This document shows, one piece after another, positions 4,171 through 27,046 of a DNA stretch of 32,000 nucleotides. The notes under the pieces were generated by a model. The model worked only from the letters and a program-made list of their open reading frames with translations, did not search any database and was not told the DNA's origin. Position 1 is the first letter of the stretch, and every line of letters begins with the position of its first letter. Source of the DNA: an uncultured Actinomycetes bacterium (GTDB lineage Bacteria; Actinomycetota; Acidimicrobiia; IMCC26256; PALSA-610); contig CAWAJR010000001.1 in the NCBI GenBank assembly GCA_963782465.1, positions 205,153-237,152 on the forward strand, given 5' to 3'. The translations under genes were made by a program, and so were the position numbers.

Positions 4171-4968
4171 TTGTCCGTGACGGCCCCGCGTGCCGGCGGG
4201 GCCGTTTCGCGCCCGCGGCTCGTCGTCGCGCTCGCGGTTGCCGTCGCGCTCGCGGCCGGCGGCTGCCACGGCAGCTCGCACCCGCGCGTCGAACCGGGCT
4301 CGACGGCCGCAACGACATCGCCGACAGTCGTGGCGACCAGTACGCGCGCCTCACGCGCGGCCGACCGGGCCGTCGCCCGGCGGGCGGTGCTGCAGCGTGC
4401 CGACGTGCCGCGAGGGTGGCGGCGGGTCGCGGTCGACGGGCAATCCGGGGACGCGCTGCTCGCGCGATTGTGCCCGTCGGTGGGCCGGGCCCGGAGGCGT
4501 CTCGCCACGCTGGAGGGCGGGGCGTTGCCGGATGCGTCGAGCGCCTTCACGCCCGGTGCCGGTGGTCTTCCCCTCGTTCGTGCTCGCGTCTACGTGCTTT
4601 CCACGGCGTCGATCGCGAACAAGCTGTTCGTGCTCACGGCGAAGGCGTCGCACGCGCGCTGCGTCGCGCGCGCGTTCGCGAAGACGTCGGGTAGCGGCGG
4701 CAGCGCGGTCACCTACGGCACGCCGACCGTTTCGCCGATCGGCGTCCCTCGCGCCGGGAGCGCGGCCACCGCGTTCGAGGTCCGTTTCGCGACGACGAGT
4801 AGCGGTGCGTCGTACGAAACGCGCCTGTACCTCGTCACGATTCTTCGCGACCGTTCCGTGGTCGTGATGTTGTTCGCCGACGCCGACCTGTTGCCGCTCG
4901 CGGCGTCGGCACGCGACGCGATCGTGCGCGCGGCCGCCGTTCGCGATCGTCAGGCCGGCAAGATTTGA
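4171..4968 (+). CDS. Hypothetical secreted lipoprotein
   Basis: The signal peptide has a lipobox (LVVALAVAVALAAGGC). The rest is unassigned. The start is TTG 4171 or GTG 4177. Confidence 0.6.
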   Translation: MSVTAPRAGGAVSRPRLVVALAVAVALAAGGCHGSSHPRVEPGSTAATTSPTVVATSTRASRAADRAVARRAVLQRADVPRGWRRVAVDGQSGDALLARLCPSVGRARRRLATLEGGALPDASSAFTPGAGGLPLVRARVYVLSTASIANKLFVLTAKASHARCVARAFAKTSGSGGSAVTYGTPTVSPIGVPRAGSAATAFEVRFATTSSGASYETRLYLVTILRDRSVVVMLFADADLLPLAASARDAIVRAAAVRDRQAGKI

Positions 4969-5830
4969 TGCAGTAACGCGTCGATCTCGTCGGACGCGAA
5001 TGCACCGTCGAGACGATCGACGATCTTGCCTTCGGGGTTCACCGCGAACAGCCACGGTTCGCTCGAGAGGTTCCACGCGTCAACGGTCGGCGACACCGTG
5101 GTGCCGGTGAGGTCGCGGTAGATCTCGACGTGCACGAAGTCGATCTGCTCCGCGTAGCGCGTTGCGAACGGTAAGAGCGTGTCGAGGATCGGGCCGCAGT
5201 ACTGCGACTGGCACAGCGCCGGGGTTGCGAAGATCACTGCGACCGGCCGGCCCTTTCCGATCAGGTCGGCCAGCGACAGCTTGTGCAACGGGCACATGGG
5301 CGTGCGCGTGCAGATCGGTTTGACCCCGAGCGGCTTCGCGAAGGTGGGCGATGCCGCCGTCGGTGCCTGGTCGCCCACCGTTGGTACGACCGGCTTCGCC
5401 TGTACCTGGAACGCGAGTTGCACCGCGCTGCCGTCGATCTTCACCGTCGCGGTGTACACGCCCGGCTTCGACAGCACCGGGTCGATCACGTACACACCGC
5501 GGTCTTTCGGCAGGCCGCTGCGGTGCAACGGCGCCGGCACGTAGGGGCCGATCGGGCTGTGCAACGGTTTGATCGCGATGCTCGCGGGCCCTTCGACGCG
5601 TACGCGCCACTCTTCGCCTTCGCGATGAACGCGAGCCGTTGCGGTTTCGGCGACGCGTACAGGTCGCTCGACATCACGAACGTGCTGATCGCGTCGTTCC
5701 CGGCATTCCCGGCGTTGGTCGTCGAGGTCGAACCGGCGGCACTCGAATTGCTGCTCCCGCACGCGGCGAGCAACGCAGCACCGCCACCGAGGGCGAGGAA
5801 CGCACGCCGGGAAAGGGGTTCGGGAGCCAC
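4950..5830 (-). pseudogene. Tat-signal lipoprotein with a thioredoxin-fold (TlpA/redoxin-like) C-terminal domain; reading frame broken by an apparent 1-nt deletion near 5586-5591
   Basis: The N-terminal part is in one frame (GTG 5830: VAPEPLSRRAFLALGGGAALLAACGSS...DLYASPKPQRLAFIAKAKSGAYASKGP). It continues in the frame of track ORF 4950-5762 (ASIAIKPLHSPIGPYV...VIFATPALCQSQYCGP...). The junction is at the gggccc run. 881+1 nt = 294 codons. Confidence 0.65.
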
Positions 5831-5858
5831 GCTCCTATTGTGCCGACTGGAGGTGCCA

Positions 5859-7580
5859 ATGTCGGATCGGGTCGCGTTCACCTGCAATAACCGACCGCTG
5901 ACGGTCGATGTCGCGGCGGGCGAATCGCTGCTGACGGTGTTGCGCGAACGGCTGGGGATCGAGTCGGTGAAGGACGGCTGCGCGCCCCAAGGGCAATGCG
6001 GGTGCTGCACCGTGCTCGTCGACGGAGAGCCGCGCGTCGCGTGCGTCACTCCCGTCGAACGGGTCGAAGGCCGTTCCGTCGCGACGGTCGAAGGGCTCGA
6101 CCCCTCGGTGCGCTCGGCGCTGAGCGACGCGTTCGTTGCCGTGGGCGGGTCGCAGTGCGGGTTCTGCACGCCGGGCATCGTGGTGCGGGCGGCGGCTTCG
6201 ATCGCGCGAGGGCGTTGCGCGCGCGCCGACCTCGATCGCGCGCTTGCCGCGCACCTGTGCCGTTGTACGGGTTGGCTCACGATCTACGACGCGATCCAGG
6301 GAGCCGCGGCCGCGGTCGACGGCGGCCCTCCGATCGCGGTGGCCGAACGTGATCTCGCCGCGGCCGGCGCACGCGCCGCGCTCGAAGGGACTGTCTCACA
6401 AGTCGTCGGCCCCGACGTCGTGCTCGGCGGCCGCCCCTTCGCCGACGATGCGGCGCCCCGAGACGCGCTCGTCGCCGTACCGCGGCCGCCGGGTGCCGAC
6501 GTGAAGGCCGTCGACGCAGCCGGATGTTCCTGGGTGCTGGGCGAGTCGTTGGCCGAGGCGCGCGCCAACGCCGGCAAGGTCCAGGGTCGGCGCACGACCG
6601 TCGCCGACGTACCTCCGATCGCGGCGGTGCCGTTACCCGCGGGCGGTGTACGGCTGGCCACGTCGTGGCTCGAACCCGCGTACCTCGAACCTGACGCGTC
6701 GTGGTGCGCGCCCGGCGGCGAACCGTTTTCGCCGCTCGCGAACGGCGGCGCGTTCGGCGGGAAGACCGAATCGATCGCGCCCCACGCCGCGCGCGACTTG
6801 GCCGACGCGACGAGGCGAACGGTGCGGGTCGTGTTCTCGCGAGAAGACGTCGTACGCCTCGGTGCAAAGCGGCCGCCCATGGCCGCATCGGCCGTCGCCG
6901 ACCTCAGCGGGCGGTCGGTGGAGATCAGTGGCGACCGAGCCGCGCCCTCCCGACCCGCGGTGTTCCCCTACACGCTCGACGTACGGCGCGATTGGCGCAC
7001 GGTGGCCGTGGCCGGCCCGCCGACCGGTGCCCTACGCGCCGCGTGGGCCGAAGAGGTCGTGCTGGTTGAAGGCGCGCTCGACGTCGCCGGCGCCGACCGG
7101 TCGGCGTTCGTGCGCGATGCACGCACCGCGTCGGTGTTGCTGCACACCTGCGCGCTCGGCCCGGAGGGCGCGCTCGCCGGCGCCGCCGTCGAGATGGGGA
7201 GCCCGGGGGCGATCGATCGCGTGCGCGTGCGGGTGGCGGCCGGCGATCCGCTCGATGCCGTGGTGTTGCGCTCGTACGTCGTCGGCGCGGTGCACATGGC
7301 ACTCGGTTGGGTTCTCACGGAGAGCATTGCCGTCGATCCGGGCACGGGTGCGGTGCACGATCTCACCATCCGGTCGTTCGGGATCATCCGGCCCCGCCAC
7401 ATGCCGCCGGTCGAGGTCACCATCGTCGACGAACCCGGCCCGCCCCTTCCGGGTGCCTCCGACGCCGCGTTCGCAGCGGTGGCCGCGGCGACGTGGAACG
7501 CTGTGGCCCGCGCCGAGGGCACCCGACCCGAATCGTTCCCCGCCCGGCACACGCACGTCGCGCAAGGGCTGCGGCGTTGA
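5859..7580 (+). CDS. Fusion of a CoxS-like [2Fe-2S] domain pair with a short, divergent xanthine dehydrogenase/aldehyde oxidase-type molybdopterin-binding region
   Basis: ATG 5859 lies 5 nt after GGAGG. CAPQGQCGCCTV, CGFCTPG and CRCTGW are the two 2Fe-2S motifs. Downstream, NGGAFGGKTES and SREDVVRLGAKRPP resemble the GGGFGGK/TREE motifs of XDH-family Mo subunits. The upstream part of the track ORF (5283-5858) is antisense to the neighbouring gene. Confidence 0.7.
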   Translation: MSDRVAFTCNNRPLTVDVAAGESLLTVLRERLGIESVKDGCAPQGQCGCCTVLVDGEPRVACVTPVERVEGRSVATVEGLDPSVRSALSDAFVAVGGSQCGFCTPGIVVRAAASIARGRCARADLDRALAAHLCRCTGWLTIYDAIQGAAAAVDGGPPIAVAERDLAAAGARAALEGTVSQVVGPDVVLGGRPFADDAAPRDALVAVPRPPGADVKAVDAAGCSWVLGESLAEARANAGKVQGRRTTVADVPPIAAVPLPAGGVRLATSWLEPAYLEPDASWCAPGGEPFSPLANGGAFGGKTESIAPHAARDLADATRRTVRVVFSREDVVRLGAKRPPMAASAVADLSGRSVEISGDRAAPSRPAVFPYTLDVRRDWRTVAVAGPPTGALRAAWAEEVVLVEGALDVAGADRSAFVRDARTASVLLHTCALGPEGALAGAAVEMGSPGAIDRVRVRVAAGDPLDAVVLRSYVVGAVHMALGWVLTESIAVDPGTGAVHDLTIRSFGIIRPRHMPPVEVTIVDEPGPPLPGASDAAFAAVAAATWNAVARAEGTRPESFPARHTHVAQGLRR

Positions 7581-13010: not shown

Positions 13011-13134
13011 GGCGTTCGCTCGCCAATGAAGAGCCTGTGAAGCTGCCACCGCGATGTCGCCAAGAGGCGGCGCCGCGCGGCAGACTCGCGGCTGCTCACG
13101 CGCGGGTGTGAGCCGAACCGAAGGGGGTACGTGC

Positions 13135-14570
13135 GTGGAAGACCACACCGCCGGCGACGTCCTCAACCTCGTGCGGGACAGTGGGATCGAAGTCGTCGAC
13201 TTCCGGTTCTGCGACCTGCCCGGCCTGATGCAGCACTTCTCGGTGCCGGCACACGAGTTGACCGAAGACGGGTTCGAGGACGGCTACGGGTTCGACGGTT
13301 CGTCGATCCGCGGGTTCCAGGAGATCCAGGAATCCGACATGTTGCTGGTTCCCGACCCGGCGACCGCGGTCATCGACCCGTTCACGCAACACCCGACGAT
13401 CAACATCAACTGTTACGTGCGCGACCCGCTCACCGGTGAGCCGTACTCGCGCGACCCGCGCTACATCGTGTCGAAGGCGGCGTCGTACCTCGAGAGCACC
13501 GGCCTTGCCGACACCGCGTACTTCGGCCCGAAGCCGAGTTCTACATCTTCGACTCGGTGCGCTTCGACCAGAACCAGTTCTCCGGTTACTACTTCCTCGA
13601 CTCCGTCGAAGGGGTGTGGAACTCCGGGCGCGAGCGCGAGATCGACGGTTCACCCAACCTCGCGTACAAGCCTCGTTACAAAGAGGGCTACTTCCCGGTC
13701 CCGCCGATGGACCAGTTCCAGGACCTGCGTTCGGAGATGGTGCGCGTCCTCGAGTCGGTCGGCATCGAGATCGAGGTGCAACACCACGAAGTCGGCACCG
13801 CGGGCCAGGCCGAGATCGACATGCGCTTCGACACGATCACGCGCATGGCCGACAAGCTGATGCTCTACAAGTACGTCGTGAAGAACGTCGCGCGCAAAGC
13901 GGGTTACTCCGTGACGTTCATGCCGAAGCCGCTCTTCATGGACAACGGCAGCGGTATGCACGTGCACCAGTCGTTGTGGAAGGGCGGCGCGCCGCTCTTC
14001 TTCGACGAGACCGGCTACGCGGGGCTTTCCGACATGGCGCGCTGGTACATCGGCGGCCTGCTCGCGCACGCGCCGGCCATCCTCGCGTTTTCGAACCCGA
14101 CGACGAACTCGTACAAGCGGTTGGTGCCCGGATACGAAGCGCCGGTGAACCTCGTCTACTCGCAGCGCAACCGTTCCGCGTCGATCCGCATCCCGCTCTA
14201 CTCGAAGAGCCCGAAGGCGAAGCGCCTCGAGTTCCGTTGCCCCGACCCGTCGTGCAACCCGTACCTCGCGTTCTCCGCGATGTTGATGGCCGGGCTCGAC
14301 GGCATCCAGAACCGCATCGAACCGCCGACGCCGGTCGACCGCGACCTCTACGACCTGCCGCCCGAAGAGTTGGCGCAGGTCCCGCAGGTGCCGGGCTCGC
14401 TCGCCGACAGCCTCGCCGCGCTCGAGGCCGACAATGCGTTCCTCCTCAAAGGCGACGTGTTCACGCCCGACGTGATCGACACCTGGGTCTCGTACAAGAA
14501 GCTGCGCGAGATCGACCAGGTGCAACTCCGCCCGCACCCGTGGGAGTTCTACCTCTATTACGACATCTGA
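13135..14570 (+). pseudogene. glnA: Type I glutamine synthetase GlnA1-type (adenylylation-site Tyr motif present); frame broken by an apparent 1-nt deletion near 13528-13533
   Basis: Track ORFs 13054-13860 and 13557-14570 are the two halves of one gene. The sequence reads FGPKPSS where the family has [16 protein letters not shown], and restoring one g (ccg gaa gcc gag ttc) rejoins the frames. 1436+1 nt = 479 codons. GTG 13135 lies 7 nt after [16 protein letters not shown] is present. Confidence 0.85.
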
Positions 14571-15725: not shown

Positions 15726-16159
15726 TCACGCCGCTCGTCGCGTGGGCGCGCGGTTCACCTTCTCGAAGTGTCGACGCAGCCAGCGGTGACGGCGACGGAA
15801 TGTCTGGGTCACGCTCGTCCGCATCAGCGCGTCGACGAGCGTTCCTCCGGACTCGATGACCAGCCGGTCGGTGAGAATCGTCGATCCACCGGCACCGACG
15901 GTTGCGGTGCGCTCGTGACGTGCAGTCCCGTTGAGCCGGCTCGTCGAACGCTCCACGAAGCGCCCCGATTCGAGTACCTCGAATGTCGTCGTGCGACGAT
16001 CGATCGTCGCGAACGGCCACAGTTCATCGTTCGCGCACTGACTCGATCGGCGTCGACGAGAGGTTCATCGTCGGTTGCTTGGAGGAGAGTGCGGACAACC
16101 AGGCATCGGAAGATCGCGGGCGGGGTCAGAGGCCGTCGGCAGGCGACGGCAAATGTCAT
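15726..16159 (-). pseudogene. SRPBCC (START/polyketide-cyclase-like) family protein; apparent 1-nt deletion near 16030-16045
   Basis: The N-terminus is in the frame of track ORF 15824-16159 (MTFAVACRRPLTPPAIFRCL...VDADRVSAR). The rest is in the frame of 15726-15956, extended upstream (NDELWPFATIDRRTTTFEVLESGRFVERSTS...). 434+1 nt = 145 codons. Its ATG overlaps the Clp-like stop (ATGA). The family call is by pattern only. Confidence 0.45.
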
Positions 16160-18275
16160 GCGGCCGTCCAGCGGAACGCGCCCTCGTGCACGTCACCGCG
16201 ATACTTGCCGGGTTGCAGCCCGACGAGCCGACCGAGCACGTGTGATTCGATGTTCCGCTCGATGTGGCGAGCTCCATAGGTAGGGCTGTAGCCGTCCCGC
16301 GCGATCCACTCGACGGCCGCTTCGCTGAGTTCGAGGTGCCAGCCCAGCTCCGACAGCGCCGCGAACGAGCGAGCGATCTCCGATTTCGCGATGTCGGCGA
16401 TGACGTCGGGGCCGAGAGGTTCGAACACGACGATGCCGTCGAGCCGGTTCACGAACTCGGGAGGCATGGCCCGTTCGATCGACGCGCGCACGGCGGCGGT
16501 GGTGGCGGCGGTCTCGGGTTCGGCGCCGAGGAAGCCGACCGGGTTCGCAGAGAACGCCCGCGCACCGAGGTTCGAGGTCATGATGATGACGGTGTCGCCG
16601 AAGCGGGCGACCCGTCCCCTCGAGTCGGTCATGCGCCCGTCGTCGAACACCTGGAGAAAGGCGTTCCACACGAGTGGGTGTGCCTTCTCGATCTCGTCGA
16701 GCAACACGATCGACACCGGCGCGTCGATGACTTTGGTGGTGAACCATCCCTGCGGCTCGTTCGAGCCGACATAGCCCGGGTGCGGGCCGTAGAGGCGGTT
16801 CACCGACCACTCCTCGGCGTACTCGCTCATGTCGAGCCGGATCATCCGGTCCTCGGCTCCGAACAGTTCCGCCGCGAGAGCCTTCGCGAGCGCGGTCTTC
16901 CCGACGCCAGTCGGCCCCGCGAACAGGAACACGCCGTTGGGCCGGTACGGGCGAAGGTCGAGCCGCGCGCTCGTGAGCGCGAGCCGCGCGGTGAGCACAT
17001 CGATCGCACGCTCCTGGCCCTTGACCCGTTCCCGCAGCCGCGCTCCGAGGTCGTCGGGCTCGACCGCCTTCCAGGTCGAAACGGCATCACCGAGCTCGAA
17101 ATCGTCGGGCACCACCTCGCGATGCCGGCGCAGGCGCGCGCGCAACGCCGCGCGGTCGAGGCGGTCGAGCAGCAGTCCGGGGTGCGCGCGGGTCTCGCCC
17201 GGTCGCCGCGGTTGCATCGCGATCTCGCGCATCGCACTTGGGATGTCGACCCGGTGGTGCCGGGCCAATGCCGGCGCGCGGCTTCGCGCGATTTCACGGA
17301 GCTGTGCGTCGTCGAGGGCCGGCAGGCGCACCATTTCGAGCTCGGCGTAGAGCTCGGGCTCCTCGGCTTCGAGTCGGTTCCGGAAGTTCTCGTCGAGGGT
17401 CGCGACCGACAGGATGTCGGGTCGACCGAGGATCGAACGGACCACACCTCGAAGGTCGAGGTCGACGGCCGGCGACGACAGGAGCAAGAGAACTTCGAGA
17501 TCGTCGAGGACGAGGATCGCGGTGTTGGGCGCACCGCCACGGATGGCTCGCAACTCGTCGGCGCGGTGCGCGCCGAGTACCGCTTCGGCGCGCACCCGCA
17601 CGACCTGGCGGTCGGCCAGCCCGATCCGTGCTCCTTCCGTGGCGAGGCGCGTCGCCAGCGCACGGATCGCGCTCGTTCGCCCGGCACCCGGTGGTCCGAT
17701 GATGCAGGGGCTCGACGGGGTGAACCGCGCGAGCTGTTCGAGCAGCTGGTCGACGACGGCGTCGAGACCGACCAGGCCCGCTTGCGGCCCGACGACCTCG
17801 AACGTCGCGGTCGGGTCGAGCTCGCGTTCGGGTACGGCAGGGGGTACCGAACTCCAGTCGATGCCGTCACCTTCGACGGCATCCTCGCCGAAGATCGCCC
17901 GGGCCGACATCGGCTCGTCGCGCGCCGACGCCGAGCCCTGCGACGGGGGAGCCGGGAGATCGAGTTCGGCGCGCACCGCGTCGCCCAACCGCTCGAACGG
18001 GTCGCCCCCTTCGGTTGCCGACCACTTCAGCATGTCGGTGCACTGCTCCGAGAGTTTCGGGGGGCTCGGCCCCTTCTGTAGCTCGGACCCGAGCCGCGCC
18101 AACTGTTCGTGAACACCTGGTCCGAACACGCGCGCCGCGCGATCGCGGTCGACGATGAGCATCGCGCGCGCAAGATGCACTGCGGTGACGGCGGCGTCAC
18201 CGTCGCGCGTGTCGCGAGCTCATCAGCGCAGACGAGTACGTCGGTCAGGACCGGCGGGAGTTCGATCTTGCTCAC
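16156..18275 (-). pseudogene. ClpC/ClpA-like double-AAA+ ATPase with a Clp_N-like N-terminus, degenerate first NBD and intact second NBD; apparent 1-nt deletion near 18203-18210
   Basis: NBD2 has FAGPTGVGKTALAKALA, VLLDEIEKAHP, IIMTSN and GARHIERNIE. NBD1 has IIGPPGAGRTS (Walker A Lys replaced by Arg) and LVLDDLE. A VGF tripeptide lies in the loop that carries the ClpP-docking motif in ClpC. The N-terminus MSKIELPPVLTDVLVCADELATR (track ORF 18027-18275) joins DGDAAVTAVHLARAMLIVDRD in the main frame. 2120+1 nt = 707 codons. Confidence 0.75.
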
Positions 18276-18574
18276 GACACCATCGAGTCGGATCGCTGCG
18301 AACGGTGCCGGGTCTTCGGGTGCACTGCGCGTTGAGCATAGGTGCGACGCTCGTGCTTGCGCAGTTGCGCGCGCTCGTACACCCGTAGTTTTCTGGTCGG
18401 GGTGAGAAGTTCGTCGCGCGTCACGATGAGAAGCGTTGCCTTTCCATTCGCACGTCGCGTCGCCTCGACGGCGTCAATGGTCGCCGCTGTCGTCGTACCA
18501 TCTCGCGCGCGCCGCGGGCGCCATCCACGACGCGAAGAGGGCGAGTGCGTGTATGACTGGCGATGAGTCCACAA
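18272..18574 (-). CDS. Possible small basic protein upstream of the Clp-like gene (start uncertain)
   Basis: The ORF ends ...SDSMVS* and its TGA overlaps the Clp-like GTG start (GTGA), suggesting translational coupling. The most protein-like part is IDAVEATRRANGKATLLIVTRDELLTPTRKLRVYERAQLRKHE. I recognised no family. Confidence 0.25.
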   Translation of the reverse strand: MWTHRQSYTHSPSSRRGWRPRRARDGTTTAATIDAVEATRRANGKATLLIVTRDELLTPTRKLRVYERAQLRKHERRTYAQRAVHPKTRHRSQRSDSMVS

Positions 18575-18690
18575 GCGGAATCTGCCGAGGATCTCGTCGA
18601 GGGTGTCGTCGACATCTATGTAGCGAAGACGTTCTGCATCTCGGCGGCGTCGAACCGTTCTGCGACTGGCTTTGACACGGGGGCCTCTAT

Positions 18691-19638
18691 ATGCGCGAAG
18701 TCTTTTTGAGCTACTCGAGGGCCGACGCAGAATTCGTGCGCAAGCTCAGTGCTGGACTGCGCGATGGCGGCTACGACGTCTTTTACGACGAAGATCTGAC
18801 CGGCGGCCAAAGATGGTGGGACACACTGCTCGATCATGTAGAGCAGTGCGACGGGTTCATCCCGATCCTGAGCGAGAGCTATGTCGAATCCGAGCCCTGC
18901 CGGCGCGAGGCTTCCTATGCCGTGGCGCTCGGCAAGACGATGCTGCCCGTCACAACCGGAAGTTCGCAGATTCCTGGCCGCTTGCTGTTGGCGGAGATCG
19001 CCGAGGCACAGTGGGTGTCGTACGACCCACTGAAACCCGACACGATCTGGGCGCTGGTCCGGGCATTGAATCGGCTGCCCGCGCCGAGTCCGATGCCAGA
19101 GCCGTTACCGCGCAGACCCGAGGTCCCGATCTCGTATCTCGTGGAGTTCGACCAAATGATCGACTCCCAACAGGAGATGACCGCGGCCGAGCAACACGAT
19201 CTGGTCGATCGCCTCATCAGCAGTGCCGGCCGTGGCGATCCCGGCGACGTGCGACGACTTCTCCAGCGACTCCGTATGCGGCCAGACATCAGGGCGGTCG
19301 TCGCGGAGCGCATCGAAGCGTTTCTTGCGAGCCGGCTATCGAGCACTTCTGAGAAAACCCTTGAGGGCGCACCTGTGCCGGACGGAGGTGAGGCGCGCTC
19401 GACGCGAGGGGTGGATCGCATCCCGGATCCACCGCCGCACGCAGGCAAACAACTCCTCATTGAAGACGCCCGAGCTCGCGGCAGACCACTTACGTTGTGG
19501 GAACCTGTAAGGCCTCAAGAACCCGGTCCTGGCGCCATGCATTTCAATGACGCCTGGTGGGCCTGGTTGTGGTGGAACGAGAGCGCGGAGGCTTGGTACC
19601 GCTACGACGCTCACGAACACAGCTGGTTCCCACTCTGA
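18691..19638 (+). CDS. TIR-domain protein (N-terminal TIR, helical middle region, Trp-rich C-terminal tail)
   Basis: MREVFLSYSRADAEFVRKL...FIPILSESYVESEPCRREASYA. The putative catalytic Glu is E73 (gag, 18907-18909). The tail is HFNDAWWAWLWWNESAEAWYRYDAHEHSWFPL. GGGGG lies 7 nt before the ATG. G+C is modestly lower than in the flanks (33/60 at 18661-18720 by my count). Confidence 0.8.
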   Translation: MREVFLSYSRADAEFVRKLSAGLRDGGYDVFYDEDLTGGQRWWDTLLDHVEQCDGFIPILSESYVESEPCRREASYAVALGKTMLPVTTGSSQIPGRLLLAEIAEAQWVSYDPLKPDTIWALVRALNRLPAPSPMPEPLPRRPEVPISYLVEFDQMIDSQQEMTAAEQHDLVDRLISSAGRGDPGDVRRLLQRLRMRPDIRAVVAERIEAFLASRLSSTSEKTLEGAPVPDGGEARSTRGVDRIPDPPPHAGKQLLIEDARARGRPLTLWEPVRPQEPGPGAMHFNDAWWAWLWWNESAEAWYRYDAHEHSWFPL

Positions 19639-19874
19639 AATGTTCGAAGCATCGCGGCGAATTCGACGTCGCCAAGCGGGTATCCCGGCGAAACGATCGG
19701 TGTCGCTCGCGCGGCAGACCTGCGCGACCTCCTTCGGTAACTGACCGGTCTTGTCGATGAAGCGCGCCATGTAACCGCTGTGCAGTTGCGCAGTACCTGG
19801 GCGCGGCCGTAGGTTGCCGCGGGTCGTGCCGGGGTGGTTGCATTCGTCGTTCGTTCGCGCCGAGAGGCGCCGCC

Positions 19875-22173
19875 TTGCCGTCGCTCGCGGCGTTTCGAGC
19901 GCCATACAGCTGGTCCACTTACGTTTCCGGTTCGGGCGCGCGTAGGGTGCTCGGCGCGTTTCGCTATCGGCTTCTCGTCGCGCTGAGCGGGCCTGCCGGG
20001 CGCCAGGACGTCGTGCGGCGCGCTCGCTACGCCCTCATTGCGACGGTCGGCGCGCTGGCGACCGGGCTCGGGTTCTGGGGTTGGTTGCGCTATCGGACGG
20101 AGCATCCCGACCAACACCTCGACCTGATCGCGCTCGTTTACGGGACCTGGGCGCTGTTCGCGTGGGGGAGCAACATCGAACGGGTGCCGTGGCAGCTCGG
20201 TGTCGCCCGCGTACTCGCACCGCTCGTGACGGCCGGTGTGATCGTCGAGTTCGGCCTCGTCGCCGCCGCGAACCAACTGCGCAAGGCGGTGGCGAGACGC
20301 TCGATCGGGCACGTCGTCGTCGTCGGTCCGGCCGAGCGGGTACATGCGTACCTCCGTGACGACGACGGAAGGCCGCACCGGCCGCCCGTGCACGTCACCC
20401 CGACCGGCACTGCACCGGAGCCGGACACGATCGTGCTCGCGGGTGACGACGCCGCGACGTGGATCACCGAGACGAACGCCCGGCAAGCTCGAGCGCGTTG
20501 TGCTCGCTCTCGGCCGCGACGACCGCAACCTCGCCGCGCTGACGGCCGCGTTCGAGCACGACATCCCGCAACCGGGCGCCGAGCTCATCGTCGAGATCGA
20601 CGACCTCGCGCTGGCCCTGCGTCTCGCGGTGCAGCTCGTCGTGGAGCGGCCCGGAGCGTCGATCGAGGTGATCTGCGTCGACGAAGCGCGCGCCGCATTC
20701 GCGTCCGCACAGATGGTCGACGCCTTCGCTCGCGTCTTCGGCTTCCGCGACGCGCGTTCCGTTTCGATGGAGCCGGAGGCGATCGAGGCACTCGAGCGCG
20801 ATCTCTCCGATGAAGCCGCGAGCGCGAACGTTCCGGTGGTCGCCGTCGTCGGCGACGGCGTGTTGCCGCGCCTGATCGTCGAGCACCTTGCCGCCGGGCT
20901 CGGGAGCCTCGGCAGTCTTACGAGCCGAAGCCTGTTCCCGCTCGTGGTCGTGGAGCCGGATGCGAGGCGGCGAGCGGAACTCGAACGCATCATCTCCGAC
21001 CCGTCGAAGGTCGCGACTTCGTTCGCGCCAGAACATCGCGCGTTGCTGCACGAGTGGTCACCAGGCAGTTGGGAAGCCGGCACGCCGATCCTCGCGGTCG
21101 TCGACTACGTCGATCCCGGCGAGACGGCACGGCGGGCCGTCGAACTGGTGTGCACCCGGCCCCAGTCGACCGTCTGGGTCCCGGGCGAGCACGAGCTGCT
21201 GCCGGGCGACGAAGTCTCGGCCCAGGCCGGTGCGCCGCGGGGACACCTACACGTGTTGTCGCGCCGAGCGATGGAGGACGCCCGGTACCTCGTCGGGCCC
21301 TTTCACCGTGTGGCACAACTGCACAACGACGACGCCGACCTGCGCAACGAGTCGGAACGCGACCGCCTGCCCACCAGGCCGGGCGCCGGCGAGGAACGGC
21401 AACCGATCGAGCACTGGGCACCGGCACAGGTTCGGTCGGGTGTTCGCACGCTCGAACGATGCGGGTGGAACGTCGTCCCGGCGCTCGGCGTCGCGTGGAC
21501 GGCGGAGCCGCGTGTCGAAGCGCTGCTCGACGAGCACACGCGGCGCGAGCTGGCCGGCACGGCGGGCGGCGCGCTCCGCGACGGCGACCAGCTCGTGCAT
21601 TGGCTCGCCCAGGTAGGCCTCGCGGTGACACGCGCGCCAGACGACCACGATCGACGGAACGGAAGGCTCGACCGTATGGCCGACGTTGCAATGCCCGAAG
21701 ACGATGCCATCGAGGTCATGGCCAGGCTCATCCATGGCAACTACATCGAGGCCCGCAAGGCGGAAGGCGAGTTCGACGCGGAACACCCGGCGATGAAGCC
21801 GTGGGAGCAGTTGTCGGCCAAGCTCCGCGGCCAGAACCGCGACCAGGCCCGGAACAACGTGCTGAAGCTCGCGTCGATCGGTCTGCGCGTCGTGCCGGCC
21901 GCGGGGGGCGAAGCCGAACCCGTGGGGCTGACCGAAGACCAGGTGCTCGTCCTCGCGCGGCGCGAACACGAGCGCTGGGGGACGCAGAAGCGCGCGCAGG
22001 GCTACCGGTACGGTCAGGAGCGAATGGACACCGGCGACAAACAGCATCCCGATCTCGTCGCGTGGGAGGAGCTCACCGACGCCGACCGGGAGAAGGACAT
22101 CGCGCCGGTGCGCCAGATCGTCGCCGTGCTGGCCGAGGCGGGCTACACGGTCGTGCCGGCTGCCACCGAGTAG
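19875..22173 (+). pseudogene. Membrane protein: about 3 TM helices, two TrkA-N/RCK-like Rossmann-type domains and two RyR (ryanodine-receptor) domain repeats; apparent 1-nt insertion near 20478-20486
   Basis: Track ORFs 19875-20813 and 20344-22173 join at ...IVLAGDDAATWITETNA / KLERVVLALGRDDRNLAAL, a continuous TrkA_N-like pattern. Candidate TM helices: YALIATVGALATGLGFWGWL, LDLIALVYGTWALFAWG and VLAPLVTAGVIVEFGLVAAA. RyR repeat 2 is LARREHERWGTQKRAQGYRYGQERMDTGDKQHPDLVAWEELTDADREKDIAPVRQIVAVLAEAGYTV; repeat 1 is MARLIHGNYIEARKAEG...KPWEQLSAKLRGQNRDQARNNVLKLASIGLRV. The start is uncertain (TTG 19875 or GTG 19947). Confidence 0.65.
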
Positions 22174-22225
22174 CGCATCGACCGCGCGAGTCGAGTTGCT
22201 CGCGCTTCACCGATCGGGGGGGGAC

Positions 22226-24634
22226 ATGCCAAAGCGGATCTTCATCAGCCACCGAGTCGACGACGCGGGCGGGACGGCCGGGCGCATCTACGACGCACTC
22301 GTGCAGGAGTTCGGCAAGGAACGGGTGTTCTTCGATGGCGAGAGCCTTCACCGTGGCGACAACTGGAGAGAGAAGATCGAGCAGACCCTCGACGAGACCG
22401 ACGCGATGATCGTGGTGATCGGGCGAGGGTGGCTGGAGGAGTTCGACGCTCGCCGCAGCCAGGGAACGCGCGATGTGCACAAGCAAGAACTCGAAGCGGC
22501 GCTCAAGCGTCAGCTGCCAATGTTCCTGACCCTCGTGGACGGCGCGGGAATGCCCTCGAGGGACCTGCTGCCGCGGGGCCTCAAGAAGCTGAACGAGATC
22601 GAGGCGCAGCCTCTCCCGCAGAAGGGCTTCCAGCACTACGTCGAACGCCTCGTCCAGGACATCGAAGAACGGCTCCGGGAAGGCTCGGGCGGGGACGACC
22701 ACGATCCGGCGCGCCCGGTGCACGGGACCGTCACCCTGACCGTGGCGCCCTACGGGGCCGCCGACTACCTCGGCATCGCGACTGCGGCCCGAGACGCACC
22801 CGAGGGCGCAACCATCCTCGTGAAACCCGGCGTCTACCTGGAGCCGGTGGTTATCAACCGGCCACTTCAGATCGTGGCGGACGGAGACCGCGACGATGTC
22901 GTCCTGGAAGTGGAGGACGGCGCCGCGATAACGAGTACGGCGCAAACTGGCCGGGTGCTGGGGCTGAGGATCGCGTCTGCCGCGCGCCAGGACGGCGTCG
23001 GAGTCCACGTCGCTTCCGGTCGCCTGCACGTCGAGCAGTGCACGGTCTCGGGGAACTCGCGCGAAGGGTCGATCGGGGTGCTGGTCGACGGGGCCGACGC
23101 GCGCCCGGTGTTCCGCGACTGCCATGTCCACGACTGCGAGACCGGGGTGGTCGCGCGCGGCGCCGCGACACCGCGCTTCGAGTCGTGCGAGATCTCTGCG
23201 ATCGTAGGCGCCGGGGTCGAGGTGTCGGATGGAGCCGATCCCGCGTTCCACGCGTGCCGGGTCCACGACATCGGGACCAACGGCATCGCTGTCGACGGCA
23301 GCGGTACCGGGACCTACGAAGACTGCGACATCACGGCAGCAAACGGGCCCGCGGTCGCCGCCGGAGATGGTGCCGACCCCGTCTTCCGAGCGCTCACCCT
23401 GAGGGGGTTGGCGAAGAACGGTGTGTTCGTGGCGGCCGGCGGCCGCGGAACGTACGAAAACTGCCGTATCGAAGGGTGCACCACCGACAGCTACGCGGCC
23501 GTGTCGATCGCCGAGGGTGCCGAGCCGGTGTTCCGCGACCTCATGGTGGTCGGCGGTGCGTCGAACGGCGTCGAGGTTCGCCCCGGCGGCAGGGGCCTCT
23601 TCGAGCGCTCCGAGATCAGCGGAACGCAATCAACTGCGATCTCCGTCGGCGACGGTGCCGATCCTACGTTTCATACGCTCACACTCAGCGGGCTCGGTGC
23701 CAACGGGTGTGTCATCGCCGCCGGCGGACGGGGAACGGTCGAAGACTGCCGTATCGAAGGGTGCACCACCGGGGGGTACCCGGCGGTGTCGGTGGGTGAC
23801 GGTGCGGAGCCGGCGTTCCGCAACCTCGTCATTACCGGCGGCCAGTCGTACGGGGTGTGGGCGCGTGAAGGCAGCCGCGGAACGTTCGAAGACTGCCGGG
23901 TCTCCGGTTCCGGCGACGCGGGGGTCCGCATCGAGGCAGGTGCCGACCCGCGGTTCGGAACGCTTGTCCTCGCACGACTGGGCCAGAACGGGGTCGTGGT
24001 CGCGGCCAACGGGCGCGGCACGTTCGAACACTGTCGTATCGAAGGGTGCACCACCGGCAAGTACCCGGCGGTGTGGGTGGGGAACGGCGCCGACCCGGTG
24101 TTCCGGCGGCTCGTCGTCGCTGGCGGGAAGTCGAACGGGGTGTACGCCTCTGAGGGCAGCCGCGGGACGTTCGAAGACTGTGAGATCGCTGCGATCGAGG
24201 TGGCTGCGATCTGGGTCGCGGCCGCCGCGGACCCGACGTTCCGACAGGTCCGCGTCCACGACGGGCGTTTGTTCGGCGTGTTTGTCGACGGTGGGCGGGG
24301 CCGGTTCGAGCGCTGCGAGATCTTCAGAACGCTGCTGTCCGCTTTCAAGGTGACGAAGGAGGGAGACCCGACCGTCGTGGAGGCGCACATCCACGACATC
24401 GGCCCTCAGGTGGCCGCGCGGTCGGGTTCCGCCGGACGGCGGCTGACGAGGCGCGCGTTGGCGGCCGCCTTCTCCGCGCACGCCATCGCCTCGGATGGCA
24501 AGGGAACCTTCCTCGACTGCACGATTTCGGCGACGCACGACGCGCCGATCTCCCCCAAGACGGTGGCGAACGGCCAGTGCCGGATCGAGCGTTGCACGGT
24601 GGACGGTGAACTGTGGACCAGTGGTGGGACGTGA
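22226..24634 (+). CDS. TIR-domain protein fused to a long right-handed parallel beta-helix (PbH1/pectate-lyase-like) repeat region
   Basis: MPKRIFISHRVDD...DAMIVVIGRGWLE...DVHKQELEAALKRQLPMFLTLVDGAGMP is TIR_2-like, with putative catalytic E88 (gaa, 22487-22489). About 640 aa of G-A-D-P-x-F / G-R-G-T-F-E-D-C periodic repeats follow. ATG 22226 lies 2 nt after a G8 run. Confidence 0.8.
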   Translation: MPKRIFISHRVDDAGGTAGRIYDALVQEFGKERVFFDGESLHRGDNWREKIEQTLDETDAMIVVIGRGWLEEFDARRSQGTRDVHKQELEAALKRQLPMFLTLVDGAGMPSRDLLPRGLKKLNEIEAQPLPQKGFQHYVERLVQDIEERLREGSGGDDHDPARPVHGTVTLTVAPYGAADYLGIATAARDAPEGATILVKPGVYLEPVVINRPLQIVADGDRDDVVLEVEDGAAITSTAQTGRVLGLRIASAARQDGVGVHVASGRLHVEQCTVSGNSREGSIGVLVDGADARPVFRDCHVHDCETGVVARGAATPRFESCEISAIVGAGVEVSDGADPAFHACRVHDIGTNGIAVDGSGTGTYEDCDITAANGPAVAAGDGADPVFRALTLRGLAKNGVFVAAGGRGTYENCRIEGCTTDSYAAVSIAEGAEPVFRDLMVVGGASNGVEVRPGGRGLFERSEISGTQSTAISVGDGADPTFHTLTLSGLGANGCVIAAGGRGTVEDCRIEGCTTGGYPAVSVGDGAEPAFRNLVITGGQSYGVWAREGSRGTFEDCRVSGSGDAGVRIEAGADPRFGTLVLARLGQNGVVVAANGRGTFEHCRIEGCTTGKYPAVWVGNGADPVFRRLVVAGGKSNGVYASEGSRGTFEDCEIAAIEVAAIWVAAAADPTFRQVRVHDGRLFGVFVDGGRGRFERCEIFRTLLSAFKVTKEGDPTVVEAHIHDIGPQVAARSGSAGRRLTRRALAAAFSAHAIASDGKGTFLDCTISATHDAPISPKTVANGQCRIERCTVDGELWTSGGT
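23369..24223 (+). repeat. Three tandem 285-bp (95-aa) units inside the beta-helix coding region
   Basis: The units start at 23369, 23654 and 23939, each opening with ggtgccgac/t (GADP). Each contains tgccgtatcgaagggtgcaccacc (or tgtcgtatcgaagggtgcaccacc), encoding CRIEGCTT. Confidence 0.8.
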
Positions 24635-24650: not shown

Positions 24651-25766
24651 ATGAGTTACCGCGACCGTATCGACGCGCCCGGGCCGAAGCGGCTCCTCGC
24701 GATCGACGGCGGCGGGATTCGCGGGATCGTCGCGCTGGAGATTCTCGCCCGCCTCGAACGCGAGCTGCGCGTGGCGACCGGCCGGCCCGACCTCGTCCTC
24801 GCAGACGTGTTCGACTACATCGGCGGCACGAGCACAGGCGCGATCATCGCGGCCTGCCTTTCGCTCGGCTTCACGTCGCAGCGCATCCTCGACGTCTACC
24901 TCGAGCGAGGCGCGGAGATGTTCGATCGCGCCCGGCTCCTCGAGCGGCTGCACCACCAGTACGACGACGACCCGCTCGAAGCAATCTTGAAGGCCGAGCT
25001 CGGCTCCGACACCACGTTCGGCAGTGATCGGCTGCGCACCTTGCTGCTCCTCGTGCTGCGCAACGCGACGACCGACTCGCCGTGGCCACTGAGCAACAAC
25101 CCCCGGGCCGCGTTCAACGATCCCGAACTCGAAGACTGCAACCTCGACCTACCGCTGTGGCAACTGGTCCGGGCGAGCACCGCCGCCCCCACCTACTTCG
25201 CGCCCGAGACGGTTCGGCTCGGGTCTCGCGACTTCGTGTTCGTCGACGGCGCGGTCACGCCCTTCAACAACCCGGCGTTACAGCTGTTCCTGATGGCGAC
25301 CGTCGACGCCTACCGCCTCGGTTGGCCCACCGGCGAGGATCGGCTTCTTCTCGTCTCGGTCGGCACGGGCAACACCGCGCACCCGCGGCCGGATCTCGAG
25401 GAGGACGACATGCACGTCCTCTTCCACGCGAAGGCGACGCCCGCCGCGCTCATGTTCTCGACCGCCGCGCAGCAAGACATGCTCTGCCGGCTTCTCGGTA
25501 CCTGCCGGTCCGGCGAACCGCTCGATTCCGAGGTCGGCGACCTGAGGGCGAGCGCGCCGCTGCTCGCCGATCCGCTCTTCACGTACCTGCGGTACGACCT
25601 CGAGCTGACCGAACGCAACCTCGAACGGTTGGGATGTGGGAATGTGAACGTGCGCGACGTCGTAGCCATCGATTCGGTCGACCACCTCGATGATCTCTGC
25701 CGTGTGGGTCGTGCCATCGCCGAGCTGCAAGTCGACATCTCGCACCTCGACGGATTTACCGACTGA
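24651..25766 (+). CDS. Patatin-like phospholipase
   Basis: Motifs: AIDGGGIRG oxyanion hole; GGTSTG, i.e. GxSxG with Ser61 (agc, 24831-24833); and FVDGAV, the catalytic Asp. ATG 24651 lies 16 nt after the TIR-beta-helix stop, with AGGGGG 8 nt upstream. Confidence 0.9.
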   Translation: MSYRDRIDAPGPKRLLAIDGGGIRGIVALEILARLERELRVATGRPDLVLADVFDYIGGTSTGAIIAACLSLGFTSQRILDVYLERGAEMFDRARLLERLHHQYDDDPLEAILKAELGSDTTFGSDRLRTLLLLVLRNATTDSPWPLSNNPRAAFNDPELEDCNLDLPLWQLVRASTAAPTYFAPETVRLGSRDFVFVDGAVTPFNNPALQLFLMATVDAYRLGWPTGEDRLLLVSVGTGNTAHPRPDLEEDDMHVLFHAKATPAALMFSTAAQQDMLCRLLGTCRSGEPLDSEVGDLRASAPLLADPLFTYLRYDLELTERNLERLGCGNVNVRDVVAIDSVDHLDDLCRVGRAIAELQVDISHLDGFTD

Positions 25767-25780
25767 CCCCTTCACGTCGC

Positions 25781-26635
25781 TCAGTCGTACCGGTAGTCGG
25801 TGCAGTAGAGAGCCGACGCGGCCCCGACGAACACGGCGACCGCGACCGTGGCGATCGCGAACTCGGTGGCGATCGCGAGGTCCAGCCCGACCGCCGTCGC
25901 TCCTTCGCCGAACGCAGCCATCTGCAGGAAGCCCCCGACGATCGCGAGCGGCACGGCGCAGACAGCCACGATGCGAACGAACACGAGCACGGTGCGCCCC
26001 TGCACCTCCTTCCACGAGAGCACGAGGCACTGTGCCCAGCCGAGCCCGGGGATGAGGTCGTCCTCGGCCACGGCGATCGGCACGACGAAGCAGGTACGGG
26101 TGACGAGCGCGACCGCGAGGAGCTCCGCGACCACCGTCGCGGGGAGCGCGGCCCAGAACGACCACTTGTCGACGACGGTCGCGGGCACGAAGACGATCGC
26201 GAACACTGCGGCGAGCACGACGGACCAGGCGGCGAAGACGCGCGGCGCGCGGCGCAGCGCGTGCAGGAGGTTGGAGCGCGTCGGGAGCCGGTCCCCGGCG
26301 CGCCGGGAGACGGCGATCGAGAAGTACGTCTGTGCGAACGCCGTCATCGCCCCCCACGACAACAAGACCACACGCAGCTCGAACGTCCAGTTCGCGAATG
26401 TCCGGTCGACGGCTCGGTGCAGGCGGGCGCGCAGGACGTCGAACGTGCCGAACGCGCCGAGCCGGTATGCGTGGCCGATCTTCGTGACGTCGTGGGGGCT
26501 CGCCAGGTGTGGGTTGACGAACAGGTGTTTGAACACCCACCCGACCATGGCGTCCATCACGACCCAGACGACGAACGTCGCCACGAAGAGAGACGGCAGT
26601 GCACCGCACATCGCGAAGAACGCCCGCACGATCAC
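25781..26635 (-). CDS. Polytopic (about 6 TM) hypothetical membrane protein, convergent with the patatin gene
   Basis: Several long hydrophobic segments (e.g. ALPSLFVATFVVWVVMDAMVGWV, VFAAWSVVLAAVFAIVFVPA, VLVFVRIVAVCAVPLAIVGGF). The start is uncertain (GTG 26635/26629, ATG 26611). The track ORF's N-terminus up to 27028 would overlap the divergent small gene. Confidence 0.55.
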   Translation of the reverse strand: MIVRAFFAMCGALPSLFVATFVVWVVMDAMVGWVFKHLFVNPHLASPHDVTKIGHAYRLGAFGTFDVLRARLHRAVDRTFANWTFELRVVLLSWGAMTAFAQTYFSIAVSRRAGDRLPTRSNLLHALRRAPRVFAAWSVVLAAVFAIVFVPATVVDKWSFWAALPATVVAELLAVALVTRTCFVVPIAVAEDDLIPGLGWAQCLVLSWKEVQGRTVLVFVRIVAVCAVPLAIVGGFLQMAAFGEGATAVGLDLAIATEFAIATVAVAVFVGAASALYCTDYRYD

Positions 26636-26827
26636 GTGCTCGCGTGCTCGACTCCGTGCTCCGCCCGTCACGACAGTCCGATGCTTCCATCTGATCGCCG
26701 CCGACGCCAATGCGTAACGGCACCGATGAGCGTTCGGGAGTGGCGTCGGCAACGGGGCCGCCGCCCTGCGCCCTTGATGATCCGGTAGCCACGCTGGCGA
26801 AGGCGTGATGCAGCTAGCGTCGCCGGC

Positions 26828-27046
26828 ATGCCGAAACACGAGATCGAAGCCGGCCTCCCCGCGCATGAGATCGTCAACGCCGACGTGACGATCGCGGTCA
26901 AGAGCGACGGCAAGCTGCTCGGTGAACTGCTGGTCAGCCGCGGGTCGGTCGATTGGCGGCCGGCCCGCCATCAGTACTCGGTCCGGCTGAGTTGGGAGAA
27001 GTTCGCGCGGCTCATGGAACGGGTGCACGACGGCGAGATCCGTTAA
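26828..27046 (+). CDS. Small (72 aa) soluble hypothetical protein
   Basis: MPKHEIEAGLPAHEIVNADVTIAVKSDGKLLGELLVSRGSVDWRPARHQYSVRLSWEKFARLMERVHDGEIR has a balanced, protein-like composition. I am not certain of any family. Confidence 0.5.
   Translation: MPKHEIEAGLPAHEIVNADVTIAVKSDGKLLGELLVSRGSVDWRPARHQYSVRLSWEKFARLMERVHDGEIR

Follow-up and report, generated by a model that had tools for sequence, protein, structure and literature searches.

The DNA described here, a 32,000-nucleotide (nt) stretch from an uncultured Actinomycetes bacterium that is referred to below as the window, contains a gene for a membrane protein with a C-terminal ryanodine receptor (RyR) domain. The gene is part of a row on the + strand that consists of TIR1, the RyR-domain gene, TIR2, and a patatin phospholipase gene. 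It is practically certain that the protein comprises two transmembrane (TM) helices and a pore-loop-like segment, two RCK/Rossmann modules, and a tandem RyR domain. Comparisons with related proteins and loci tip the balance modestly toward what appears to be the best explanation, namely that the RyR protein is the effector that senses the signal in a Thoeris-like TIR immune module. With its RyR-repeat sensor placed on a channel scaffold like that of GsuK, it would probably represent a new class of Thoeris-like effector.

Architecture of the RyR-domain protein

RyR is the only domain recognized at the sequence level in the window protein; Pfam RyR (PF02026) matches the C-terminus with an E-value of 1.3e-15 (57.9 bits vs a cut-off of 27.4). 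A first-pass annotation, made from the sequence alone, had described two C-terminal repeats with the RyR signature, and this description is borne out by PDB alignments and structural models. In a search of PDB sequences, repeat 2 aligns strongly and repeat 1 weakly yet consistently to RyR repeats, and the family profile matches animal RyR1/2/3 at E 1e-37. The intact homologue P0010 was modeled with AlphaFold (pLDDT 78, pTM 0.62), and Foldseek searches with the last ~200 residues of this model return the crystal structures of RyR3/RyR1 Repeat12 and Repeat34 (E 1.7e-6 to 1e-4). The superpositions reach a TM-score of 0.71 over ~200 columns, with ATP-, ADP-, and dantrolene-bound Repeat12 among the matches. 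Since the model superposes on tandem-repeat structures, the C-terminal domain is a tandem two-repeat RyR domain. This domain is homologous to that of the animal ryanodine receptors (profile 1e-37, Foldseek 1e-6), and in both cases it sits on a protein of cation-channel type, whereas the pore, the size (741 vs ~5,000 amino acids, aa), and the other regulatory domains are unrelated.

The putative ligand site has been compared with those of the phage RyR-domain proteins RyDEP and RyR Tad, which bind or cleave 2'cADPR, 3'cADPR, and cyclic ADP-ribose (cADPR) (PMC13232231; 10.64898/2026.06.04.730250). The ligand residues of RyDEP (phage DyoEdafos gp78, PDB 35TM) are H75, W78, H100, and D117; the enzyme is a glycosidase whose catalytic dyad consists of H and D and which retains linear ADP-ribose (ADPR), while its relatives are nanomolar sponges, with 6 of 8 phage homologues that carry the same residues binding without cleaving (PMC13232231). 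RyR Tad (Pectobacterium phage CB1 gp68) binds 3'cADPR, 2'cADPR, and cADPR via H129/W132, K147/H154, and K170/D171 (10.64898/2026.06.04.730250). Alignment with both proteins places the full set of ligand residues (H, W, H, K-D) at matching positions in repeat 2 of the window protein, with one extra loop residue between them, and the PDB match to 35TM spans this same stretch. The corresponding positions in repeat 1 are H, Y, H, and N. Among 71 diverse family members, the repeat-1 His and the repeat-2 E-H are invariant, and the Trp of the repeat-2 H-x-x-W motif (three residues past the His) is present in at least 90%. The shared ligand residues make binding of an ADPR-derived nucleotide plausible and do not indicate which nucleotide. 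That the RyR domain of the window protein binds a TIR-derived nucleotide is judged likely from these alignments.

Insights into the membrane and RCK parts come from the P0010 model and from an AlphaFold model of P0006 (pLDDT 79, pTM 0.76), a natural homologue that lacks RyR repeats. The two models give the same layout for their common parts. P0010 begins with a long helix (residues 16–52), a short helix (60–69), a low-confidence loop (70–81), and a second long helix (82–118), which are followed by two Rossmann modules, a subclade insert, and the two RyR repeats (about 581–741). The membrane part proposed at first pass stands, while the count of about three TM helices is better replaced by two long TM helices with a short helix and a loop between them. 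The two Rossmann-like modules with degenerate glycine motifs, also proposed from the sequence, are confirmed, and their fold matches that of tandem-RCK gating rings. When the first 530 residues are searched with Foldseek, the matches are the gating ring of LjCASTOR (2.3e-5), the ring of TrkA (8e-5), full-length GsuK (4e-4, ~480 columns), MthK, and Slo1, and E-values against RCK channels and TrkA rings range from 2e-5 to 8e-3. The glycine motif of RCK1 reads HVVVVGPAERV in the window vs HVVVCGLGxxG in the family consensus. Of the two profiles anticipated at first pass, only RyR is matched by the window protein; Pfam TrkA_N finds no match there, though it is found in 67/71 relatives.

The insert between RCK2 and the RyR repeats is modeled as helices and hairpins. 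Its stretches GWNVVPALG and QVGLAVTR resemble the C-terminal hairpins of RyR repeats, and the insert may be a degenerate extra repeat pair. Some family members carry four to six RyR repeats.

The predicted part order (TM1, short helix, loop, TM2, and then RCK) is that of GsuK, MthK, CASTOR, POLLUX, and Slo1, and GsuK likewise has two RCK domains per chain. The predicted two-TM pore-loop topology agrees with Foldseek matches to full-length GsuK and MthK, although their TM-scores are weak. The protein is called "channel-like" here on account of its topology and the order of its domains. Unlike RCK-gated two-TM channels, the protein carries an extra C-terminal tandem RyR domain and, in its subclade, degenerate RCK glycine motifs; a filter of the TVGYG type is absent, and the searches given below yielded neither a match to Ion_trans_2 nor any similarity between the TM sequence and a channel. 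The absence of TVGYG had been noted at first pass and is confirmed; a K+ filter of the form T-[VI]-G-[YF]-G is missing from the window protein and occurs in just 1 of 145 representatives. The accompanying view that this is not a standard RCK-gated channel holds as far as the sequence goes, but in its overall build the protein is like a channel of the GsuK/MthK type. Membership in the K+ channel family was rejected at the sequence level and is kept as an architectural analogy only. Ion conduction by the RyR protein is given somewhat less than an even chance.

The membrane motif L..AR.L(AP) is invariant in the 71 relatives. Between the TM helices the family consensus reads D..YrsLQLFvLESG..PvPWqLevARfLAP, and the window subclade has LFAWGSNIE (within 20124–20215). 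A likeness of the "LQLFvLESG" loop to the bacterial sodium-channel filter TLESW was considered and dropped, as only 36% of members have the Glu and the window protein lacks it. The top match in the phage and viral library BFVD is a phage "potassium channel domain-containing protein" (9.5e-5), followed by several phage RyR-domain proteins.

The family is very large. A word-indexed homologue search returned a handful of close relatives only, and an exhaustive hidden Markov model (HMM) profile search was needed to determine family size. The latter found 3,892 cluster representatives (50% identity clusters) at E<=1e-30, of which >150 are full-length matches below 1e-104, mostly 560–800 aa long. 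RyR is present in all 71 of the diverse members (71/71) and TrkA_N in 67/71, and these proteins share only ~20% mean column identity. The subclade of the window protein is a small, divergent branch. Some members are named "voltage-gated potassium channel Kch" by JGI. Contigs of GTDB representative genomes, a set that does not include the window's own genome, yielded no relatives when scanned with P0002 or alignment A2. No relative was found among IMG/VR viral contigs scanned with the family alignment, plasmids searched by tblastn with P0002 gave no match, and phage sequences searched by tblastn with the RyR domain gave a single weak match only. A scan of metagenome contigs with the RyR alignment found nothing, while a scan with the patatin alignment did find loci. 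No PADLOC or NCBIfam model matches the RyR protein.

Genetic linkage to TIR and patatin genes

The DNA around every homologue with available contigs was examined, and 10 independent loci had flanks that were informative. In 6 of the 10, the RyR gene has a TIR gene at a distance of no more than ~1.5 kb. The window and the environmental contig L007 carry two TIRs; the other loci contain a TIR-TM-PD40 protein of 1,088 aa (L001), TIR-TM-GDPD (L004, a Propionibacteriaceae metagenome-assembled genome), TIR-nSTAND1-WD40 (L006, with an LSDAT_prok/SLOG gene straight after the RyR gene), TIR-WD40 of 1,268 aa (L008), and a 321-aa TIR (L019/20). Locus L019 comes from a distant representative that was chosen arbitrarily, with its context disregarded. 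Identity among the RyR proteins of the TIR-linked loci is only 23–40%, and their TIRs come in different architectures (beta-helix, PD40, GDPD, nSTAND1-WD40, WD40, and short). The catalytic Glu column is kept in 9/9 neighboring TIR domains. Furthermore, four cluster representatives (P0122, P0173, P0176, and P0177) combine TIR_2, TM, TrkA_N, and RyR in one polypeptide. These fusions are 753–788 aa long, contain two TM helices, and are 61–72% mutually identical, and their domain order fits the two-TM topology with the N-terminal TIR and the C-terminal RCK/RyR both in the cytosol. The occurrence of TIR neighbors near other RyR-domain genes, the four fusions, and the phage ligand precedent all support the suggestion, made at first pass, that the protein is a candidate receptor or effector for a TIR product. 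Based on these sequence comparisons, a functional link between the RyR protein and TIR is very likely.

TIR proximity could also arise from the clustering of genes in variable islands around a housekeeping cation or K+ channel gated by ATP, ADP, or NAD. The size of the family, the Kch label given to members by JGI, and the intact GxGxxG RCK motif of most relatives are consistent with such a channel, as is the binding of ATP/ADP by human RyR Repeat12 (PDB 6uhh, 9l9b). Loci L023 and L005 are without TIR, and the window is flanked by housekeeping genes (glnA, glyoxalase). However, TIR genes of varied architecture within ~1.5 kb in 6/10 loci are far above chance, given that Thoeris systems occur in ~8% of genomes according to the December 2025 catalogue (10.64898/2025.12.03.692087). 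The four TIR fusion representatives and the co-directional 16–52 nt spacing in the window also argue against a housekeeping role, which is considered very unlikely.

Several of these loci contain additional genes. In L006, a gene for LSDAT_prok (the SLOG domain of TRPM channels, E 1e-42; 6681–7352) overlaps the stop codon of the TrkA_N-RyR gene, on whose opposite side the gene for TIR-nSTAND1-WD40 points away. One bacterial TIR locus thus contains two different domains known from eukaryotic channels linked to ADPR or cADPR. In L004, the TIR_2-TM-glycerophosphodiester phosphodiesterase (GDPD) gene (4204–5910, −) is convergent with that of the RyR-domain membrane protein. Unannotated, convergent genes lie right after the TrkA_N-RyR gene in two unrelated loci (L019:9769–10554, −, 261 aa; L023:8832–9578, −, 248 aa), and the 261-aa L019 protein sits between the RyR and TIR genes.

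The patatin partner was missed at first pass. The window patatin has intact GGGxRG, GTSTG, and DGA motifs and matches the PADLOC model "Effector phospholipase" at 5e-39 and the NCBIfam model CBASS_lipase at E 8e-29 (100.8 bits, below the curated cut-off of 200). It resembles CBASS CapV in matching the cGAMP-activated phospholipase model with its catalytic motifs intact, and differs in that it scores below the NCBIfam cut-off, has no CD-NTase cyclase nearby, and is partnered by TIR and RyR genes. Orthologues (63–71% identity) lie beside RyR genes in L001, L002/3, L008, L009, L010/11, and L014, and the patatin–RyR pairing also occurs in L005; the adjacent RyR genes of L008, L009, L010/11, and L014 were recovered by the patatin-side metagenome search. 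The L001 patatin is 68% identical to that of the window, whereas the RyR proteins are only 39% identical. The patatin is at least as constant a partner of the RyR protein as TIR is. From this distribution of partners, the module looks combinatorial, a sensor-TIR being joined by a patatin, by an RyR channel-like protein, or by both.

Stand-alone host RyR-domain proteins with two repeats are encoded beside the patatin in L002 (4903–5397, 164 aa) and L008 (11122–11613, 163 aa), and are similar in size to the phage sponge proteins. On two independent contigs, L002 and L003, there is a natural split between the RyR and TM-RCK parts. Further conflict-system genes near RyR–patatin pairs encode a 1,439-aa DUF4062 (TIR-like)-STAND-TPR protein in L008 (12455–16774) and a baeRF-family protein in L010 (3543–4670).

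The constancy of the patatin raises the possibility that the RyR-TM protein is a non-conducting membrane receptor that, upon a TIR signal, recruits or activates the adjacent patatin as the killing enzyme. No feature of the loci is more constant than the adjacency of the two genes (window, L001, L002/3, L005, L008, L009, L010/11, and L014), L005 and L010 have the pair with no TIR nearby, and the patatins remain 63–71% identical where identity between the RyR proteins has dropped to 39% or less. The absence of a channel sequence signature in the Pfam, PDB, and hhalign searches is consistent with a receptor of this kind. On the other hand, RyR-TM proteins occur with TIR and without patatin in L004, L006, and L019, related patatins occur with TIR and without RyR-TM in L012 and L013, and the TIR fusions (P0122 and others) need no patatin. 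CBASS CapV-type patatins bind their nucleotide signal directly, and the invariant L..AR.LAP membrane motif suggests that the TM part is more than an anchor. Consequently, a purely receptor function is regarded as unlikely.

The gene copy in the window and its surroundings

The RyR gene is interrupted in this assembly. GC content by codon position (GC3) indicates that frame 0 is coding until ~20480 and frame 1 beyond, and pairwise alignment with L007, a JGI environmental contig that is 99.08% identical to window positions 17691–22808, identifies an extra G (Table 1). This is the single indel between the window and L007 within the RyR gene, which L007 carries as one unbroken 741-aa open reading frame (ORF), P0010. 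P0010 shares a 90% cluster with P0001, the C-terminal fragment (557 aa) annotated by NCBI, and the distant homologues P0002 (681 aa) and P0003 are colinear over the junction. The intact ORF in L007 and the colinear homologues therefore establish, as had been presumed at first pass, that the two ORF halves are one frameshifted gene rather than genuinely separate genes. The true start is probably the GTG at 19947 and not the TTG at 19875. Outside the RyR gene, the comparison with L007 shows a further indel at 22215, where a poly-G run shortly before the start codon of TIR2 is short of one G, and a 2-nt difference at 18209–18210 in the ClpB–TIR1 intergenic region.

The frameshift could mean that the RyR gene in the window is a dead pseudogene and the cassette a decaying remnant. 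The insertion severs the membrane module from the remainder of the protein, the NCBI annotation covers only the 557-aa C-terminal part, and a second gene of the window, the glnA-like gene, is likewise frameshifted; residues 8–131 of the window's own GlnA align to it in frame 1 (13159–13533) and residues 144–420 in frame 3 (13668–14501). Against decay, GC3 remains high after the shift (0.76–0.94 in the shifted frame) with no stop codon, and apart from one base the gene and its neighbors are 99% identical to the intact environmental copy. A second split gene within 32 kb makes an indel-prone assembly plausible, or gene decay; two frameshifts per 32 kb in an otherwise intact region are what an indel-prone assembly would be expected to give. 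A pseudogene is a real possibility, on balance a doubtful one, and it bears on this copy alone and not on the family.

The window is a high-GC region (about 0.65–0.71). TIR genes had been reported on both sides of the RyR gene, and both are confirmed by Pfam TIR_2 (Table 1). TIR1 keeps a Glu at the catalytic position (E73), which falls at the "WCxxE" position in an alignment to MyD88; its C-terminal half is Trp-rich and uncharacterized, and TIR1 also adjoins the intact RyR gene in L007. In TIR2, a long right-handed beta-helix repeat region is the putative sensor part. The gap between TIR1 and the RyR gene is 308 nt, while 52 nt separate the RyR stop codon from the TIR2 start and 16 nt separate the TIR2 stop codon from the patatin start, with a G-rich Shine-Dalgarno-like stretch before the start codons of TIR2 and the patatin. 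The RyR–TIR2–patatin spacing is operon-like and co-directional.

Divergent from TIR1 is a gene for a ClpB/ClpA-like AAA+ protein, which has PADLOC matches to the candidate defense ATPases PDC-M37B and DolB. This gene is kept beside TIR1 in L007 and is absent from other RyR loci, and its product may belong to a separate system or be an accessory part. Convergent with the patatin gene is a gene for a 415-aa protein with ~six hydrophobic segments that has no match in Pfam, NCBIfam, or PADLOC. The outer flanks consist of housekeeping genes (glutamine synthetases, glyoxalases, HAD, and EAL). The two flanking glyoxalase genes were considered as the duplicated border of an island; this was rejected because they have no mutual similarity.

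Table 1. Positions of the RyR-domain gene, its parts, and neighboring genes, numbered from the first base of the window.
Feature	Position	Strand	Basis or remarks
glnA-like gene	13054–14570	+	frameshifted
ClpB/ClpA-like AAA+ gene	16156–18180	−	674 aa
TIR1	18691–19638	+	315 aa; N-terminal TIR_2 at aa 4–111; Pfam TIR_2 E 7.1e-21
RyR-domain membrane protein gene	19947–22173	+	741 codons if intact; 1-nt insertion at 20491
Membrane module	19992–20300	+	AlphaFold secondary structure, hydropathy, conservation over 71–154 family members
TM1	19992–20102	+	AlphaFold, hydropathy
Short helix between TM helices	20124–20153	+	AlphaFold
Variable loop LFAWGSNIERVP	20154–20189	+	poorly modeled
TM2, family-invariant L..AR.LAP motif	20190–20300	+	AlphaFold, conservation
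Two RCK/Rossmann-like modules	20307–20676 and 20833–21282	+	Foldseek; glycine motifs degenerate in subclade
Extra G (CTC-G-AGC)	20491	+	frame 0 to frame 1; pairwise alignment with L007
Subclade-specific insert, RCK2 to RyR repeats	21295–21633	+	only in P0010, P0002, P0003, P0006 (alignment A3)
RyR repeat 1 (IHGNY ... EHPAMKPWEQL ... QNRD)	21688–21912	+	PDB alignments to RyR repeat 4
RyR repeat 2	21925–22170	+	Pfam RyR; match to PDB 35TM (RyDEP structure)
Repeat 2 motif EHERW	21964–21978	+	
Repeat 2 motif KQHPD	22039–22053	+	
Repeat 2 motif REKD	22087–22098	+	
TIR2	22226–24634	+	N-terminal TIR_2 (Pfam E 1.3e-9), then Beta_helix (E 4.2e-57)
CapV-like patatin phospholipase	24651–25766	+	371 aa; Pfam Patatin E 1.5e-25
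Gene for 415-aa protein	25781–27028	−	

Relation to known systems and proposed mechanism

The nearest known systems are the Thoeris systems (types I–XI), of which type X ThsK, the type V TM effector ThsF, and the predicted "SLOG-patatin" are closest. The December 2025 catalogue lists 29 effector configurations that include the type X "ion channel" ThsK and "SLOG-patatin", and RyR, PF02026, TrkA, and RCK are absent from its text and from the searchable text of its supplements (10.64898/2025.12.03.692087). As in Thoeris, a TIR gene that keeps its catalytic Glu is located beside an effector that joins a nucleotide-sensor domain to a membrane- or lipid-targeting module. In contrast to Thoeris, the sensor is an RyR/Repeat12 tandem domain, the TIRs are TIR_2-type proteins, often with beta-helix, WD40, PD40, or nSTAND1 regions, rather than the short ThsB, and the window carries two TIR genes and a patatin. 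Two effectors in one Thoeris operon have a precedent in ThsH and ThsI (10.64898/2025.12.03.692087). By its sequence, the RyR protein fits no described Thoeris type (ThsA, ThsC–ThsL), with ThsK compared by description only. No earlier prediction of this kind, and no host receptor built on an RyR repeat, was found in the open-access literature, and the main texts of both RyR preprints describe no host membrane RyR-domain effectors (PMC13232231; 10.64898/2026.06.04.730250).

RyDEP and RyR Tad share with the window protein the PF02026 domain, the ligand residues H-x-x-W, H-P, and K/M-K-D, and the fold, as seen in the BFVD matches to phage RyR-domain proteins. These phage proteins, which form small soluble homodimers, remove the host signal by destroying or sequestering it, whereas the window protein is host-encoded and combines two repeats per chain with RCK and membrane modules, a build that suggests the opposite role. 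The resemblance could alternatively reflect a shared activity, in which the host RyR domain serves as a brake that sequesters or hydrolyzes the TIR signal, either to guard against autoimmunity or to return the system to its resting state. Repeat 2 retains the H and the D that make up the catalytic dyad of RyDEP (PMC13232231), and the stand-alone ~163-aa host RyR-domain proteins of L002 and L008 lie in the same loci. A buffer, however, has no need of two TM helices and a tandem RCK ring conserved in thousands of members, and a TIR fused to a domain that destroys its own signal (P0122) would be self-defeating. In addition, 6/8 phage homologues with these residues bind without cleavage (PMC13232231). 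A brake function is accordingly rated as highly improbable.

The proposal that the RyR protein is the signal-sensing effector of a TIR module must also be weighed against several results that speak against it. With regard to the channel-like membrane part, the Foldseek matches to channels come mainly from the RCK part, the GxGxxG motif of RCK1 is lost in the window's subclade while most relatives keep it, and the putative filter loop is variable and modeled with low confidence. A profile search of PDB sequences with the TM part gave 0 matches at E<=10, hhalign of the TM part vs a K+ channel found nothing, and Ion_trans_2 is not among the matches listed for the 71 members (top 25 of 54 families). 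With regard to the partners, TIR is lacking in 4 of the 10 informative loci, namely L005, L010/11, L023 (in the available flanks), and L002/3 (on short contigs), and related patatins with TIR and without an RyR gene in L012 and L013 indicate that the RyR protein may be accessory. With regard to the ligand, animal RyR Repeat12 binds ATP/ADP, as described above, and an ordinary adenine nucleotide is therefore another possible ligand. Finally, the RyR gene is frameshifted in this assembly and is either inactive here or mis-assembled.

The following mechanism is proposed for an effector of this type. Upon infection, the sensor-TIRs (here with a beta-helix) would convert NAD+ into an ADPR-derived nucleotide, such as a cADPR isomer or ADPR. 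This nucleotide would be held by the RyR repeats in a pocket formed by the H-x-x-W, H-P, and K-D motifs, and ligand binding would be relayed via the RCK ring to the membrane module, which may pass cations or otherwise compromise the membrane. The co-encoded CapV-like patatin phospholipase would act on membrane lipids as a second effector, and the infected cell would stop growing or die. In this scheme, the domain architecture, the links to TIR and patatin by gene position and fusion, and the conserved ligand residues are observed, while we infer the identity of the ligand, ion conduction, the route of patatin activation, and the role in anti-phage defense. A broader version, in which TIR, an ADPR-derived nucleotide, and an RyR-repeat-gated cation channel, often with a lipase co-effector, make up a widespread bacterial pathway, is tentative and at present somewhat unlikely.

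Phage RyR-domain proteins were shown to bind TIR signals only in mid-2026 (preprints). The window locus and its relatives point to a host counterpart, an RyR-repeat receptor represented by thousands of channel-shaped membrane proteins. If the proposed function is correct, Thoeris-type immunity would gain both a sensor domain and an effector class that are new to it, the origin of the phage RyR-domain counter-defense proteins would be explained, and the CapV-like patatin would be a lipase effector linked to TIR and not to a CD-NTase. The layout of a sensor-TIR, a lipase-type protein, and a cation channel parallels plant signaling from TNLs through the EDS1 family to helper-NLR Ca2+ channels. 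Whether cADPR acts directly on RyR channels is debated, and such an action would likewise gain an ancient, testable prokaryotic counterpart, and a small bacterial system would become available for the decades-old question of whether a cADPR-type nucleotide acts directly on a channel-borne RyR repeat.

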